Shown piece after piece: positions 26,973 to 34,613 of a DNA stretch of 64,000 bases. The notes beneath the pieces were generated by a model that was not told where the DNA came from, did no database searches, and saw only the letters and a list, made by a program, of their open reading frames with translations. Position 1 is the first letter of the stretch. Every line of letters starts with the position of its first letter. The DNA is from Bacilli bacterium (lineage in GTDB: Bacteria > Bacillota_I > Bacilli_A > RF39 > UBA660). A program made the translations under genes and the position numbers. Location of the stretch: the NCBI GenBank assembly GCA_017411405.1, contig JAFQQE010000014.1, positions 1,067 through 65,066 on the forward strand. The letters are read 5' to 3'.

Positions 26973-26996
26973 AGTATAATATTTTTGGTGGTAAAA

Positions 26997-27890
26997 ATGT
27001 ATTTAGGAAGTCATGTTTCTTTTGATAGTAAAGAACAATTATTAAAAAGTGTTAAAGAATGTATAAGTTATGGAGCGAATACATTTATGTTTTATACAGG
27101 CGCTCCTCAAAATACTATGAGAAGTGCTATTAATGATGAATTAACATATAAAGCATATGAATTAATGAAAGAGAATAATATAAACTTAGAAAAAGTAATA
27201 TGTCATGCTCCATATATAGTTAATTTAGCTAACGATTTAGATCCTAGCAAATATGATTTTAGTATAAATTTTTTAAAAAATGAAGTTAGTAGATTAGAAA
27301 CTTTAGGAATAAAATATTTAGTATTACATCCAGGAAGCAGTGTAGGAATAGAAAAATATCATGCATTAGATAATATAATTAATGGATTAAATAATATTTT
27401 GTATCAAAATTGTAACGTTGTTATATTGCTAGAAACGATGTCTGGTAAAGGTACTGAGCTTGGAACTAATTTAGAAGAAATAAAATATATAATTGATAAC
27501 ATTAAAGAAAAAAACAATATAGGAGTATGTTTAGATACATGTCATTTGAATGATAGTGGAATAGATATATCTAAGTTCGATGACTATTTAGATTTATTTG
27601 ATAAAGAAATAGGAATAGATAAAATTAAATGTATCCATATAAATGATAGCAAAAACAATATAGGTGATCATAAAGATAGACATGAAAATTTCGGGTTTGG
27701 AACTATAGGATTTGATAACTTAATAAATATTATATATAATCCTAGATTAAATAATATACCTAAAATATTAGAAACACCATACGTAGGAGAAAATAAAGAA
27801 TATCCTCCATACAAATTTGAAATAGAAATGATAAAAAATAAAGAATTTAATTCTAATCTAATAAACGATATTATTAATTATTATAAATAG
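26997..27890 (+). CDS. nfo: Endonuclease IV (AP endonuclease)
   Basis: LGSHVS, HAPYIVNLA, LHPG, LETMSGKGTE, DTCH, HIND, DRHEN, ILETP metal-ligand motifs. Confidence 0.95.
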   Translation: MYLGSHVSFDSKEQLLKSVKECISYGANTFMFYTGAPQNTMRSAINDELTYKAYELMKENNINLEKVICHAPYIVNLANDLDPSKYDFSINFLKNEVSRLETLGIKYLVLHPGSSVGIEKYHALDNIINGLNNILYQNCNVVILLETMSGKGTELGTNLEEIKYIIDNIKEKNNIGVCLDTCHLNDSGIDISKFDDYLDLFDKEIGIDKIKCIHINDSKNNIGDHKDRHENFGFGTIGFDNLINIIYNPRLNNIPKILETPYVGENKEYPPYKFEIEMIKNKEFNSNLINDIINYYK

Positions 27891-27899
27891 GAGAGCAAC

Positions 27900-29045
27900 A
27901 TGAATTTAATGGCAGATACAAAACTCATCAACGATTATATAAATGGAAACGATATAGAAAATTATACTTTAGATGAATTAGAGAACAATTCAAATTTTAT
28001 GTTATCAGTAATAAAATATACACAAGATAAAAGAATTTATAATTTATGCTCTAATAAGTTAAAGAATGATTATGAATTTATAAAAGAAATAATATTATTC
28101 TTTAAAGATGATTTTAAGTTTATTAATAAAGTAGCAGGAGATTTCATTGATAATAATAAATATAAACCAAATGTAATAAACATAACTGATTATCTAAATC
28201 CAGATGATAAAACTAAAGAAACAGAAATATTTGAACTATGTATTATTATGTCTAGAATATATAAGAAATATTATCCTGATGAATTTAATAAATATGCAGT
28301 TAATGTTACTTTATTTAAAGAAAGTAGCTTAATAGAAAATGAAATTATTTTAAGAGAAAATAAAAATGAACTTTGGGTTAAAGATTTAGGATTAGGTTTT
28401 AAATTATGTGCTCTAGCATTTCAAAATAGTGAAGAAATATTAAAAGTATTCATTGATTATTATTTAAATGAATTATTTTTTGTTCCTGATATGGAATCAT
28501 TATTACATAAAAAATTTATTAATAAAGAAGAATTTATTAATTATGGTATCAATAACTATATAATAAATCATATAAAAAAGTATGATGAATATTTAGCATA
28601 TTATATTACTAAAAGATTATACTTAACTAAAGATATAAAAAAGGACATAGATAAAATTATATATAATTGGGATAAGTATAACTATAATATAGAAAAACAA
28701 AAATATGATCTATTTATGGAAAAGTTATTAGAGTATAAAGAAGAAAATTTTATGAATATGCTATATTCATTAGATGAATTAATAGATTTTATAAAGAATA
28801 ATTTAGGGTTAGAAGATATATTTAATAAATACTATATAAAAGATTATATATATAGTGAAGAAGATAAGTACTATGATTCATTATTTAATAGAAATGGAAT
28901 TAAACTAGAAAAAATGAATGAAGAAGAAATAAAGTGTATTAGATATGTATATAGTCTTGCAAAGAGGATATTTAATAAGAAAATAGAACTAGATGAATAT
29001 AGTAACGTAATTAATATTAAAAGTTTGAGAAAAGTAAAAAGATAA
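27900..29045 (+). CDS. Hypothetical all-helical protein
   Basis: 381-aa ORF with a GGAGAG RBS. The N-terminal ELENNSNFMLSVI / KLKNDYEFIKEII segments resemble DUF4116-type helical repeats. Confidence 0.65.
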   Translation: MNLMADTKLINDYINGNDIENYTLDELENNSNFMLSVIKYTQDKRIYNLCSNKLKNDYEFIKEIILFFKDDFKFINKVAGDFIDNNKYKPNVINITDYLNPDDKTKETEIFELCIIMSRIYKKYYPDEFNKYAVNVTLFKESSLIENEIILRENKNELWVKDLGLGFKLCALAFQNSEEILKVFIDYYLNELFFVPDMESLLHKKFINKEEFINYGINNYIINHIKKYDEYLAYYITKRLYLTKDIKKDIDKIIYNWDKYNYNIEKQKYDLFMEKLLEYKEENFMNMLYSLDELIDFIKNNLGLEDIFNKYYIKDYIYSEEDKYYDSLFNRNGIKLEKMNEEEIKCIRYVYSLAKRIFNKKIELDEYSNVINIKSLRKVKR

Positions 29046-29120: not shown

Positions 29121-29381
29121 ATGAACGATATAAAATTTAATTCCTTAAATGAATTATATACAAGATTATTACCAGCATTAAATACTAAAGTAAATGAGTT
29201 GAAACTTAATGGGATAAGTTATATTAAAGTTGATGATATATGGGATTATTTAAGAATGCATAAATGGAATAAAAGTAGTAATCTTACTTTAAGTGAATGT
29301 GTAGATGATATATTAAATACAAGTGACTTAGAATATAAGAAATATATGAAAAATAAAATGAGTAGTATTTTAGGTGGGTGA
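29121..29381 (+). CDS. comN: ComN-like post-transcriptional regulator
   Basis: LLPALNTKVNEL...GISYIKVDDIWDYL...KW motif. In B. subtilis comN lies in the same chromosomal block upstream of relA-dtd. Confidence 0.7.
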   Translation: MNDIKFNSLNELYTRLLPALNTKVNELKLNGISYIKVDDIWDYLRMHKWNKSSNLTLSECVDDILNTSDLEYKKYMKNKMSSILGG

Positions 29382-31528
29382 AAAATTTGGAAACTATAAA
29401 TTATATTATAGAAAAATATAAAAACGATGGATTAGAAAGTGATAAGTTAAATTTAATAAAAGAAGCTTATCTTTATGCAGAAAAAAAACATGAAGGCAAG
29501 AAGCGTAAAAGTGGTTGTGATTTTATTGAACATCCTCTAGAAGTTGCAAAAATCTTAACTGATATCAATGTTGATGATACTACAATAGTAGCAGCATTAG
29601 TACATGAAACTATAAGTGAAAGTGATGCTACTAAAGAAGAATTAGAAGAATTATTTGGCATAGATGTTGCAAAAATTGTAGAATCCCTAACTAAGATCAA
29701 TAAGTTAAAATTAAATGATTCTAGTGAATCCGGAAGCATATATTTAAGAAAAGTTCTTGTAGGACTTTCAGAAGATGCGAGAGTTTTAATTATAAAACTA
29801 GCAGATAGATTACATAATATGAGAACACTATCTTACTTGCCAGAATATAAGCAAAAACAAAAAACTATTGAGACTATGAATGTTTTAATTCCTATAGCAC
29901 ATAGATTAGGGATAAATAGCATTAAAAGTGAGTTAGAAGATCTAAGTTTAAAATATTCTAAACCTGAAGTCTATAATAGTATACTTGAAAAATTAGATGG
30001 GACAAGAGAAGAACTAAATAAAGTATTAAATGATATGTTAGAAAGTATTAGTGAAATACTTAGTAGTCATAATATTAAATTTAAAATTAAAGGTAGAGTA
30101 AAAAGTGTATATAGCATATATACTAAATTATGTACCGGTCGTAAATGGAATGATATCTACGATATTTTAGCTATGAGAGCAATAGTAGAAAATATAAGCG
30201 ATTGTTACTTAGCTGCCGGATTAATACATTCTAAATATAGACCAATACCAAAACGTTTTAAAGACTATATAGCAATGCCAAAGGCAAATATGTATCAAAG
30301 TTTACATACATCAGTATTTGGTGATGATGGACACATATTTGAAATACAATTAAGAACAAAAGAAATGGATGAAATAGCAGAAAATGGTATAGCAAGTCAT
30401 TGGTCTTATAAAGAACATACATCAGGTAATATTAAAAACTTAATGGACCAAAAATTAGAACTATATAAAAATATAATAGATAGCCATGCAAATGATGAAA
30501 GTGATGAAGCATTCGCAAAATCTATGGAAGAAGAATTATTATCAGATTTAATTTATGTATTTACTCCAAAAGGTGATGTAATGGAGTTACCTCAAGCATC
30601 TACACCAATTGACTTTGCATATAGAATACATACTAATGTAGGAGAAAAAATGGTGGGTGCAATAGTAAATGAAAATATTGTACCATTAGATTATAAATTA
30701 CAAGATGGAGATATTGTAAAGATTAAGACTGATCCAAATTCTAAGCCAAACAAAAACTGGTTAAATATAGTAAAAACAACACAAGCAAAAAACAAGATCA
30801 AATCATATTTTTCAAAAATTGATAAAGAAAAATATATAGAAAATGGTAAAGATTTATTAGAAAAAGAGATTAAAAAACAAAAACTAGTTATTAAAGAAGT
30901 ATTAAGCGATAATAATATAAATAAATTATGTAAAGATTTAAAAGTTAAAGATCTAGAAGAAATATATTTAAATATAGGATCACTAAGATATACAGCAACC
31001 TATATAATTAATTTAATATATGAGGACAAAAAGAACGTACAAGATATTTTATTAGATAAAGTATTAAATAATAAAATAGAAAGTAAAAACAATTATAAAA
31101 AAGACATAATTGTAGATGGTTGTGATGATATATTAGTTAATATTGCAGATTGTTGCCATCCAGTAAAAGGTGATGACATAATTGGATATATAACTAAAGG
31201 TAATGGAGTAACTGTACATAAAAAAAATTGTGCTAATTTAAAAGGAATAGATACTAGATTAATTAGTGTTAGTTGGAATATGGATAGTGATAATTTATAT
31301 ACATCTAAATTAAAAATATATACATTTGATTCAAATAATAATTTATTAAATATAGTAACAAAAGCAAGTTTAAAAAGTGTCGTTATTTCATCTATAAACG
31401 AATTTAATTCTAATAATAAATATGGATATGATGTAATTGTTAAAGTAAAAAATAAAACTGCTTTAGAAGATTTTAAAGAAAGTATACAAACTTTACCATT
31501 TGTATCTAAAGTAGAGATAGAGGAATAA
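29378..31528 (+). CDS. rel: Long RSH (p)ppGpp synthetase (Rel), hydrolase motif degenerate
   Basis: HD, SYNTH (GRVKSVYSIY, YDILAMR, RFKDYIAMPKANMYQSLHT, EIQLRT), TGS (TPKGDV..DFAYRIHT), ZFD (CCHP..C) and ACT domains. Confidence 0.95.
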   Translation: MKNLETINYIIEKYKNDGLESDKLNLIKEAYLYAEKKHEGKKRKSGCDFIEHPLEVAKILTDINVDDTTIVAALVHETISESDATKEELEELFGIDVAKIVESLTKINKLKLNDSSESGSIYLRKVLVGLSEDARVLIIKLADRLHNMRTLSYLPEYKQKQKTIETMNVLIPIAHRLGINSIKSELEDLSLKYSKPEVYNSILEKLDGTREELNKVLNDMLESISEILSSHNIKFKIKGRVKSVYSIYTKLCTGRKWNDIYDILAMRAIVENISDCYLAAGLIHSKYRPIPKRFKDYIAMPKANMYQSLHTSVFGDDGHIFEIQLRTKEMDEIAENGIASHWSYKEHTSGNIKNLMDQKLELYKNIIDSHANDESDEAFAKSMEEELLSDLIYVFTPKGDVMELPQASTPIDFAYRIHTNVGEKMVGAIVNENIVPLDYKLQDGDIVKIKTDPNSKPNKNWLNIVKTTQAKNKIKSYFSKIDKEKYIENGKDLLEKEIKKQKLVIKEVLSDNNINKLCKDLKVKDLEEIYLNIGSLRYTATYIINLIYEDKKNVQDILLDKVLNNKIESKNNYKKDIIVDGCDDILVNIADCCHPVKGDDIIGYITKGNGVTVHKKNCANLKGIDTRLISVSWNMDSDNLYTSKLKIYTFDSNNNLLNIVTKASLKSVVISSINEFNSNNKYGYDVIVKVKNKTALEDFKESIQTLPFVSKVEIEE

Positions 31529-31529
31529 T

Positions 31530-31973
31530 ATGAAAGTAATAATACAAAGAGTTAAAGAATCAAGTGTTTCTATAAATAATGAAGTATATAATTCTATAAA
31601 TAATGGATTTATGATACTTGTAGGATTTACTGAAGGAGATACTAGTATAGATATAGATTACATAATAAAGAAAATAGTAAACCTACGAATCTTTGATGAT
31701 GAATCTGGCATAATGAATAAAAGTATAATAGACGTTGGTGGTAGTATACTTTCTATTAGTCAATTTACTCTTTATGCAGATACAAAAAAGGGAAATAGAC
31801 CAAGTTATATTAAAGCATTAAAAGGCGAATTATCTACTAAATTATATGATGAATTTAACGAAAAATTAAACAAAATAGTCCCAACTAAAACAGGAATATT
31901 TGGTGCTGATATGAAAGTTAGTTTAATTAATGATGGCCCTGTAACTATAATAATAGATAGCAAGGATAAATAA
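31530..31973 (+). CDS. dtd: D-aminoacyl-tRNA deacylase
   Basis: [29 protein letters not shown]. Confidence 0.96.
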
Positions 31974-33686: not shown

Positions 33687-34613
33687 TTATTTTATACTAA
33701 AAGTACTAACTATATTATCATTAACATAGTATAAAACTTCATTTACATCATAATTATCACTTATAGATAAATTTATAGAATAAGTAACTTCCTCTAATAT
33801 ATTATTTGTTGTTATATCATTTAATATTCCTTCATTAAAATTTAATAATAATGTCTTATCCGTTTCGTTATAACTTAATAATTCTGTATTACTATTTAAA
33901 TAACTAATTAAATTAGTACTAAGCATTTTACTACTACTTAATTCTTTTATTATAATTTCTATTTTACTTATTTCATCATTAGTTATTTTAGTAACTGGTA
34001 CATAGTAATAATAATCTTTATACTTAGCATTATAATATACTGTAGTTTTAGTGGTATTATCTATAGTATTTATATTAAACTCTTTATTAATACCAATAGT
34101 TCTATCTAAGATAGTATTTAATCTTCTATTAGAATTAGGTAATTTATTTAATATATTTCCCTCAACAAATATAGAAACATAATCGATATTATCTAAACTT
34201 GTTATACTATATACTATTGCTTCTATCATTTTTTCTTCATTATCAATACTTACATTAAGTATTTCTTTACTAAAATTTAATTTAACTAATTTATCTTCAA
34301 TAGTTAAACTTAAAAGCTTAGTATTTTTTGGTATAACTTTATTAAAGCCTTCTCTAATATATTTATTAGAATCTATTGTTAATATACTTATAATTTCCTT
34401 AATTTTATCTTTTAAATCTTCACTAGTAAGAACAGTACTTACTCTAGATATATAATTATTTTGGTCCATTAAATATACAATATTAGTTTCACTAGTATGA
34501 ATAATATTACTATTTAATTCCACTTTTTTATCTGGAAATAAATATAATATACCCAAAATAAAAAGACATGATAAACTTATTATTATTTTTCTTAAAGCTT
34601 TTCTTTTTAACAT
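33687..34613 (-). CDS. gerM: GerM-like protein with two GerMN domains
   Basis: N-terminal TM; VYLMDQNNYISRV, IPKNTKLLSLTIEDKLVKLNFS, IEAIVYSIT...VSIFVEG; the second domain is similar (LNFNEGIL...VLYYVN). Confidence 0.75.
   Translation of the reverse strand: MLKRKALRKIIISLSCLFILGILYLFPDKKVELNSNIIHTSETNIVYLMDQNNYISRVSTVLTSEDLKDKIKEIISILTIDSNKYIREGFNKVIPKNTKLLSLTIEDKLVKLNFSKEILNVSIDNEEKMIEAIVYSITSLDNIDYVSIFVEGNILNKLPNSNRRLNTILDRTIGINKEFNINTIDNTTKTTVYYNAKYKDYYYYVPVTKITNDEISKIEIIIKELSSSKMLSTNLISYLNSNTELLSYNETDKTLLLNFNEGILNDITTNNILEEVTYSINLSISDNYDVNEVLYYVNDNIVSTFSIK

Follow-up and report, generated by a model that had tools for sequence, protein, structure and literature searches.

The window analysed here is a 64,000-nucleotide stretch of a Bacilli genome of the RF39-like order (contig JAFQQE010000014.1), and the open reading frame (ORF) at its positions 29378-31528 (+) encodes a long RelA/SpoT homologue (RSH), which we name RSH-1. 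The hydrolase site of RSH-1 reads HE..SE in the place of the canonical HD..ED. Outside the window, the same genome encodes a truncated paralogue, named RSH-2, with the HD..ED residues kept and key synthetase residues lost. We describe the two genes, their distribution in the order, and the possibility that they share out the synthesis and the hydrolysis of (p)ppGpp between them.

Domains and active-site residues of RSH-1

The translation of 29378-31528 (+) runs for 716 codons without a stop from a GTG start, in a window of around 22% GC; a gene caller's record places the start 3 codons downstream, giving 713 aa. The domain order is HD-SYNTH-TGS-helical/zinc-finger domain (ZFD)-ACT, that of a complete long RSH, with all domains on the forward strand and four of them above the Pfam cut-offs. 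The hydrolase (HD) domain occupies residues 30-179 (29465..29914; HD_4, 124 bits), the synthetase (SYNTH) domain residues 239-347 (30092..30418; RelA_SpoT, 127 bits) and the TGS domain residues 392-451 (30551..30730; 84 bits). The helical and zinc-finger region, including CCHP...C, spans residues 463-624 (30764..31249; RelA_AH_RIS, PF19296, 33 bits) and aligns to ribosome-bound Rel/RelA chains. The C-terminal ACT/RRM-like domain (residues 639-713, 31292..31516) is matched weakly by ACT_4, with 17 bits against a cut-off of 27; RSH-1 can be aligned by phmmer with the C-terminal regions of Rel/RelA to about residue 693, and its homologues carry the ACT family PF13291. The TGS, ZFD and ACT domains listed in the first-pass annotation, which was made from the letters of the window, are thus all recovered, the last of them below its cut-off.

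At the family level, RSH-1 scores 653.6 bits with TIGR00691 (RelA/SpoT family; cut-off 499), which places it among the long RSHs, and it reaches neither of the NCBIfam equivalog cut-offs, SpoT-type or RelA-type. With the RelA equivalog NF008124 it reaches 407 bits against a cut-off of 728, outside RelA membership. The closest solved structure is B. subtilis Rel 6YXA (E 1e-148). Upstream lies a gene for a ComN-like "post-transcriptional regulator" (29121..29381, +; PF13797, 50 bits), the stop of which overlaps the rel start by 4 nt, and 2 nt downstream follows dtd for D-Tyr-tRNA deacylase (31530..31973, +; PF02580, 190 bits). This comN-rel-dtd order is the canonical rel neighbourhood of Bacilli and identifies RSH-1 as the orthologue of the housekeeping Rel.

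The codons at 29600-29620 read gta cat gaa act ata agt gaa, encoding V-H76-E77-T-I-S80-E81. H76-E77 (cat gaa, 29603..29608, +) stands at the site of the HD dyad (H77-D78 of S. equisimilis Rel, RelSeq), and S80-E81 (agt gaa, 29615..29620, +) at the site of the catalytic ED pair (RelSeq E81-D82). In the gap-free alignment of the HD domains, "alvhetisesd" of RSH-1 faces "gflhdvvedtd" of B. subtilis Rel. Gap-free phmmer alignments to the Rel proteins of B. subtilis (6yxa, 8acu), M. tuberculosis, M. smegmatis and T. thermophilus likewise set "vhetises" against "lhdvvedt" or "lhdtvedt". The HDXXED motif of bifunctional Rel[HS] is therefore absent, with HD changed to HE and ED to SE. R43 (RelSeq R44), H52 (H53) and the segment ADRLHNMRT are kept. 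Codons and alignments together bear out the earlier description of this site, including its statement that the upstream R/H and the DRLHN segment are retained.

The synthetase half is complete. The motifs GRVKSVYSIY, YDILAMR, RFKDYIAMPKANMYQSLHT and EIQLRT are present, and all 16 scored residues (RK D R RKD K N Y Q H E Q R T; D262 and E322 correspond to D264 and E323 of RelSeq) are canonical as in a Rel[HS] synthetase, in agreement with the intact DILAMR, RFKD, YQSLHT and EIQLRT motifs noted before. The RFKD motif is of the RXKD type and lacks the charge reversal to EXDD found in RelA (motif definition from PMC2666561). The HD domain scores 165 bits to that of B. subtilis Rel vs 57 bits to the pseudo-HD of E. 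coli RelA. RSH-1 nevertheless shows the RelA-type combination of a lost HDXXED with a retained synthetase and ribosome-binding C-terminal region.

The altered site is a property of the lineage. We collected the 120 protein clusters closest to RSH-1 (61-84% identity, many independent assemblies) and calculated column conservation from 118 full-length homologues. The HD position reads H-E in nearly all of the 120 clusters, over which EIQLRT and RFKDY are invariant. In the 118 homologues, the residues H52 (RelSeq H53) and D143 (D144) are 100% conserved, H76 (H77) 99%, E77 (the D78 position) 97%, and R43 and N147 (N148) 98% and 97%, respectively; R43, N147, R149 and T150 are all conserved to at least 97%. 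S80 (the E81 position) is found in 69% with 10 residue types, and E81 (the D82 position) in 85%, the pair reading SE, IE, KE, NN, NH, TL, LS, LC or other combinations. By this profile, the residues predicted to form the metal and nucleotide pocket are conserved in the RSH-1 family and those of the catalytic dyad are not. Since the HE state is seen throughout these homologues, the change in RSH-1 is a lineage trait and not a chance event or sequencing error; the check by ortholog alignment suggested in the first-pass annotation thus came out in its favour, with a fixed HE and a drifting ED position.

Farther from rel, nfo (endonuclease IV-like) lies at 26985-27890, and a 381-aa ORF without a Pfam match at E<=0.001 fills 27900-29045 (+) between nfo and the comN-like gene. 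The segment 32258-33659 (+), which lies past dtd and a DUF1653 gene, contains ORFs of 126 and 344 aa that overlap; the longer has a weak helix-turn-helix match and a HELSH motif in its translation. A GerM-like (Germane domain) gene follows at 33687-34613 (-).

RSH-2 and its relatives in the RF39-like order

The host genome (G000) is a 1.04-Mb assembly estimated to be 78% complete. A whole-genome domain search identified two carriers of HD_4 or RelA_SpoT, namely RSH-1 and RSH-2, the latter a 478-aa ORF at G000:C17:65620-67056. RSH-2 contains HD_4 (127 bits), RelA_SpoT (98 bits) and TGS (56 bits) and ends around 35 residues past TGS; with RelA_SpoT and TGS besides HD_4, it is not the single HD domain of a small alarmone hydrolase (SAH). 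Aligned over 458 residues with a single gap, the two proteins are 39% identical; their active sites diverge in opposite ways: VHETISES in RSH-1 corresponds to LHDVVEDT in RSH-2, and FEIQLRT in RSH-1 to IQIQIKT in RSH-2. Every scored hydrolase residue is kept in RSH-2, and its synthetase site carries E323Q, at residue 317 of RSH-2 itself, together with R241K, K243I, R269K, R295K, Q309R and R327K (RelSeq numbering). It reads RQEPYHHDEDDRHNRT in HD and KIDKKKDKNYRHQQKT in SYNTH, the latter including E323Q, and so has the residues of the SpoT[Hs] type, without the full C-terminal region of that type (HEL, ZFD and RRM around the Core). According to PMC13299517, which cites Hogg et al. 2004, D78A and R44Q abolish hydrolysis by RelSeq, and D264G and E323Q abolish synthesis. 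A missing HDXXED is the accepted reason for monofunctional Rel proteins that do not hydrolyse (PMC2666561).

An AlphaFold2 model of RSH-2, calculated with 46 short RSHs as input, shows a compact fold with high confidence (pLDDT 94.2, pTM 0.90). Its catalytic N-terminal half superimposes by Foldseek on the N-terminal domains of S. aureus Rel with a TM score of 0.95 and a root-mean-square deviation of 1.5 Å. The global TM scores of 0.68 to B. subtilis Rel and 0.59 to A. baumannii SpoT (SpoT_Ab) do not discriminate among conformational states, including the SpoT tau-state.

The first-pass annotation had implied a separate (p)ppGpp hydrolase and named Mesh1-like and Nudix proteins as targets of a search. 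The genome search yielded a candidate for such an enzyme in RSH-2, a truncated Rel paralogue; there is no Mesh1-like SAH in G000, and none of its five Nudix genes is assignable to (p)ppGpp. The whole-genome RelA_SpoT search found no small alarmone synthetase (SAS) either, so that the toxicity logic of RelP/RelQ in B. subtilis does not apply to this genome. The neighbours of short RSHs are ordinary chromosomal genes (polC, rpsP, HIT, murF-like) without a toxSAS or toxin-antitoxin-like partner, and a toxin-antitoxin, phage or mobile-element setting was rejected. Their synteny, with ASCH upstream and polC downstream, is confined to the genus, and locations vary beyond the genus level.

To extend the comparison, 121 genomes of the order were searched with RSH-2 and HD_4, around 190 gene regions were fetched, and 16 hydrolase and 16 synthetase positions were scored in each sequence; counts of long RSHs refer to 117 genomes, and an intact hydrolase core is defined as H53/H77/D78/E81/D82/D144. 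The long RSHs (about 705-740 aa) have a complete synthetase signature in 117 of 117 genomes, with the hydrolase core intact in 54 and degenerate in 63. Degenerate states comprise HE combined with NN, NH, SE, TL, DL, KR and others, as well as YR.., HD with NF, and further variants; D78E together with an intact ED pair was never found in the approximately 180 sequences examined. The short RSHs (about 400-530 aa) present the mirror image, with a full hydrolase core in 52/52 and a normal synthetase site in 0/52. All 52 lack E323, with Gln at least 90% conserved in its place, and the hydrolase and ppGpp-contact residues R44, Y50, H53, HD, ED, D144, N148, R150 and T151 are invariant or nearly so. 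Mean pairwise identities of HD and SYNTH are 0.61 and 0.43 in short RSHs, 0.68 and 0.74 in canonical long RSHs, and 0.50 and 0.63 in degenerate long RSHs. The divergence of the two domains is therefore reciprocal between short and degenerate long RSHs.

Both kinds of gene tend to occur together. A short RSH is present in 37/63 genomes with a degenerate long RSH vs 14/54 with a canonical one (p=0.0004), and, when every further HD_4 protein that passes the Pfam cut-off is counted, a partner in 44/63 vs 23/54 (p=0.005), in Fisher tests on raw counts that ignore kinship.

Several variants were noted on the way. Short RSHs occur in three copies in G057 (L090, L218, L219), where the long RSH reads HE..EE, and in two copies in G063 (L092, L220). 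TGS is lost and SYNTH more decayed in the short RSHs L268 (G062, 406 aa), L269/L270 (G069/G048, 413 aa) and L267 (G051, 334 aa), which look like stages between a truncated Rel and a stand-alone SAH. One long RSH (G080:C1:73425-74846; L216/L293) contains an in-frame TAA, due to either pseudogene formation or an error in the assembly. The other extra HD_4 proteins scored, absent from G000, are SAH-like (171-265 aa) or fusions of HD with a P-loop domain, and keep HD..ED except for HD..EQ in G010 and HD..EN in G043. The fusions, found in many genomes of the order, join an SAH-like HD_4 with intact HD..ED to a C-terminal P-loop NTPase/kinase-like domain with a weak AAA_28 match, in frames of about 440-680 aa (L274 in G098:C10, L463 in G100:C4, L464, L465 and L462).

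Trees were calculated with FastTree from 177 N-terminal regions and with IQ-TREE (LG+C20 PMSF) from 72 representatives, with Bacillales, Lactobacillales, Clostridia, Acholeplasmatales, Anaeroplasma and Erysipelotrichaceae as outgroups. In both trees the short RSHs are monophyletic (support 100) and sister to all long RSHs of the order (99), which argues for one Rel duplication near the base of the order and against transfer from elsewhere. This position indicates that the duplication is old and lineage-specific. RSH-1 falls within a single large clade in which all 49 of 49 sequences are degenerate (support 96). The tree requires about 10 changes of the hydrolase-site state, at least 5 of them forced by well-supported branches alone, so that degeneration also arose several more times outside the clade of RSH-1. 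The convergent evolution proposed in the first-pass annotation is consistent with these trees, which place the origin inside the order and independent of proteobacterial RelA.

In the surveyed families of Bacilli outside this order, each genome has a single long RSH at E <= 1e-40, with the exception of one family (f3), the second copies of which are full-length (about 670-736 aa) and not short. This family, which includes "Mollicutes bacterium LVI A0039", combines a Rel[HS] with a second RSH in which the HD site is obliterated and 16/16 synthetase residues are intact (L389:1264-3291 in G121, equal to CP136953.1 at about 1236.5-1238.6 kb; also L385-L391). Its tree position apart from the RF39 clades marks the second copy as another independent RelA-like duplicate.

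A possible division of labour and its alternatives

From the sequence states, conservation, gene co-occurrence, phylogeny and reciprocal domain divergence described above, we infer that each protein has lost one activity and that RSH-2 is the physiological hydrolase. We give a probability of about 70% to the resulting picture, in which RSH-1 and RSH-2 would constitute a convergent reciprocal split like that of RelA[hS] and SpoT[Hs]. RSH-1 would be the housekeeping Rel orthologue, most likely turned synthetase-only ([hS] in Atkinson's notation). Its HD domain, which keeps the Mn-ligand set H52, H76, E77 and D143 and the nucleotide contacts R43, N147, R149 and T150, would still be folded, and it lacks the Glu-Asp pair that performs hydrolysis. 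Because the comN-rel-dtd neighbourhood and the TGS, helical/ZFD and ACT/RRM domains are kept, RSH-1 may act as a ribosome- and deacyl-tRNA-activated synthetase, as expected from knowledge of long RSHs and from the ribosome-bound structures it matches. The HD domain, probably a pseudo-hydrolase, would then serve regulation or act as a scaffold, as it does in RelA (PMC9974481; PMC8012599). Degradation of (p)ppGpp would be carried out in trans by RSH-2, which lacks the ribosome-binding domains and may thus be a free enzyme, constitutive or regulated by metabolites. In this pair, presumably derived from a separate Rel duplication at the base of the RF39-like order, the "on" enzyme would be the one activated by the ribosome and the "off" enzyme the free one.

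Several observations weigh against this division. D78E is a conservative change, Glu can ligate Mn, and E81 might replace D82 in the SE subclade, so that weak hydrolysis by RSH-1 is conceivable; its HD domain is far better conserved than the E. coli RelA pseudo-HD, by the 165 vs 57 bits given above, and RXKD is retained. After phylogenetic correction, the association between a degenerate long RSH and the presence of a partner is not significant, with only 5 independent contrasts pointing in the same direction (3.0 vs 0.5). A second HD_4 protein was not detected in 19/63 genomes with a degenerate long RSH; as these metagenome-assembled genomes are 92-96% complete, the number exceeds what gaps alone (an incompleteness of about 5-7%) predict, and a partner of the RSH-2 type is therefore not obligatory. 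Short RSHs also accompany fully canonical long RSHs in 14 genomes. Moreover, C-terminally truncated A. baumannii SpoT loses much activity (PMC9974481), which suggests that the naturally truncated RSH-2 might be a weak hydrolase, and G000 itself is incomplete at 78%. The partnerless genomes may have residual hydrolysis, or use another type of hydrolase, or belong to slow-growing reduced organisms that tolerate its absence.

The strongest competitor, which we still regard as unlikely, is that RSH-1 remains bifunctional, its H-H-E-D metal site and E81 giving slower or differently regulated hydrolysis, with RSH-2 as an accessory. The near-complete conservation of the metal ligands and of R43, N147, R149 and T150, the presence of E81 in 85% of the subclade, an HD_4 score on par with that of the intact paralogue (124 vs 127 bits) and the 19 genomes without another detected HD_4 gene are all in its favour. 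It is at odds with the sister lineages within the all-degenerate clade, which carry NN, NH, TL, HL or KR at the dyad, none of which are general bases, and with HE never accompanying an intact ED pair. The single substitution D78A sufficed to abolish RelSeq hydrolysis in the account cited above, and HDXXED is the accepted determinant of this activity. In degenerate long RSHs, HD also evolves relatively faster than SYNTH.

A role of RSH-2 other than housekeeping (p)ppGpp hydrolysis appears more improbable still. It could be a hydrolase of (p)ppApp or other nucleotides, or a relative of defence or antitoxin-type SAHs, with (p)ppGpp removed by a Nudix protein, another enzyme or dilution. The variable genomic locations of short RSHs beyond the genus, their multiple copies in G057 and G063, the five Nudix genes of G000 and the antitoxin function of SAHs in other systems (PMC7229694) would fit such a role. 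The near-invariance of Rel-type hydrolase and ppGpp-contact residues across the short family, the ordinary chromosomal neighbours without a toxSAS or toxin-antitoxin-like partner, the lack of an SAS in G000 and the vertical inheritance of the short clade from a Rel duplication speak against it. Finally, the reading of HE..SE as an artefact, be it an error of sequencing or assembly or the decay of a pseudogene, is effectively refuted. A single third-position change (GAT/GAC to GAA) would turn D into E, and the metagenome-assembled genome is 78% complete; yet HE recurs in over 115 independent homologues drawn from many assemblies, the 716-codon frame is intact, and the synthetase and C-terminal domains are strongly conserved.

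If the division of labour between RSH-1 and RSH-2 is accepted, a broader and rather speculative extension may be considered, in which RF39-like Bacilli would form a natural series of the splitting of a bifunctional enzyme, following a single old duplication. The stages may persist in living lineages as Rel[HS] alone; Rel[HS] with [Hs]-TGS; [hS] with [Hs]-TGS; [hS] with a shrunken [Hs] or an SAH; and [hS] without an RSH-type hydrolase. As the pocket of the [hS] HD domain keeps its metal and nucleotide-contact residues under selection, it may be an allosteric sensor of (p)ppGpp or another nucleotide and not a relic, and the conserved Gln in the pseudo-SYNTH site of the short paralogue may have a similar sensor role. 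This extension would also require, for the orphan [hS] genomes, a (p)ppGpp hydrolase outside the RSH family that has yet to be described.

Comparison with known systems

Firmicutes, including Bacilli, rely on one bifunctional Rel in the textbook view, in which long RSHs specialised for synthesis alone and for hydrolysis alone are an invention of beta- and gammaproteobacteria. This gut lineage, abundant though uncultured and with genomes near 1 Mb, appears to have made the same split independently and by a different route. Two or three point changes would have cost the ribosome-docking copy its hydrolysis, and the copy that serves as hydrolase would have shed its ribosome-binding domains. Canonical, intermediate and fully split states stand side by side in the order, which makes it a compact comparative system for why subfunctionalisation of (p)ppGpp metabolism recurs, which residues switch off each activity and what becomes of pseudo-catalytic domains. 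The annotation "bifunctional (p)ppGpp synthetase/hydrolase" is probably wrong for both genes in these genomes. Our literature search found no paper linking RF39 and the stringent response.

E. coli RelA resembles RSH-1 in its HD-SYNTH-TGS-helical-ZFD-ACT architecture, its intact synthetase, its lack of HDXXED and the presence of a partner hydrolase gene from the same ancestral Rel. Unlike RelA, RSH-1 nests in Bacilli Rel, which points to an independent origin, fails the RelA equivalog model, has RXKD (RFKD) and not EXDD, lacks loop expansions and retains the Mn ligands in an HD domain that is little altered. The label "RelA-like" of the first-pass annotation is thus appropriate for the predicted function and does not hold for the sequence family.

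Nearest to RSH-1 and RSH-2 in predicted function are RelA[hS] and SpoT[Hs] of Moraxellaceae (A. baumannii SpoT, PDB 7QPR; PMC9974481). In both pairs a pseudo-HD in the first paralogue, predicted as such for RSH-1, is matched by a pseudo-SYNTH in the second, where the pseudo-SYNTH, Core and TGS are kept beside an HD that is active or, in RSH-2, predicted to be active. SpoT[Hs] of A. baumannii has its alpha6-alpha7 element locked by Core and TGS, which brings the hydrolase site into alignment, and its pseudo-SYNTH has a regulatory role (PMC9974481). The whole C-terminal region of SpoT_Ab is kept and needed for hydrolysis, whereas RSH-2 stops soon past TGS. The hallmark of the pseudo-SYNTH in RSH-2 is the conserved E323Q, that in SpoT_Ab is extensive remodelling, and the lineage and the duplication differ.

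Bifunctional Rel proteins of Firmicutes (B. subtilis 6YXA, S. equisimilis RelSeq 1VJ7, S. aureus 7OIW) are the closest sequence kin of RSH-1 and share its architecture, the comN-rel-dtd order and RXKD; they differ by HD..ED at the site of HE..SE and by the absence of a second RSH paralogue. RshC is a second-copy long RSH that breaks off within the helical domain; it was assigned to the [HS] type in six strains of Bacillus, with unclear origin (PMC3153485). The architecture of RSH-2 matches it by description. The position of the RF39 short clade as sister to the Rel of its own order argues against a shared origin with RshC, which we compared by its description. Bacteroidetes RshB and plant RSH2/3 (Atkinson 2011) are lineage-specific Rel duplicates with an HD diverged as in RelA. 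In those cases the extra copy degenerates, whereas here the syntenic housekeeping copy appears to lose hydrolysis and the truncated extra copy to keep it. SAHs such as Mesh1, RelH and PbcSpo are, as RSH-2 is predicted to be, in-trans (p)ppGpp hydrolases with the same HD_4 catalytic residues, but RSH-2 differs from these stand-alone enzymes in retaining the pseudo-SYNTH, Core and TGS. Rel duplicates are already known to have subfunctionalised convergently, and more than once, in RelA/SpoT, RshB and plant RSHs (PMC3153485), so the kind of split is known from elsewhere, and what is new here is an apparent reciprocal two-gene system across an order.

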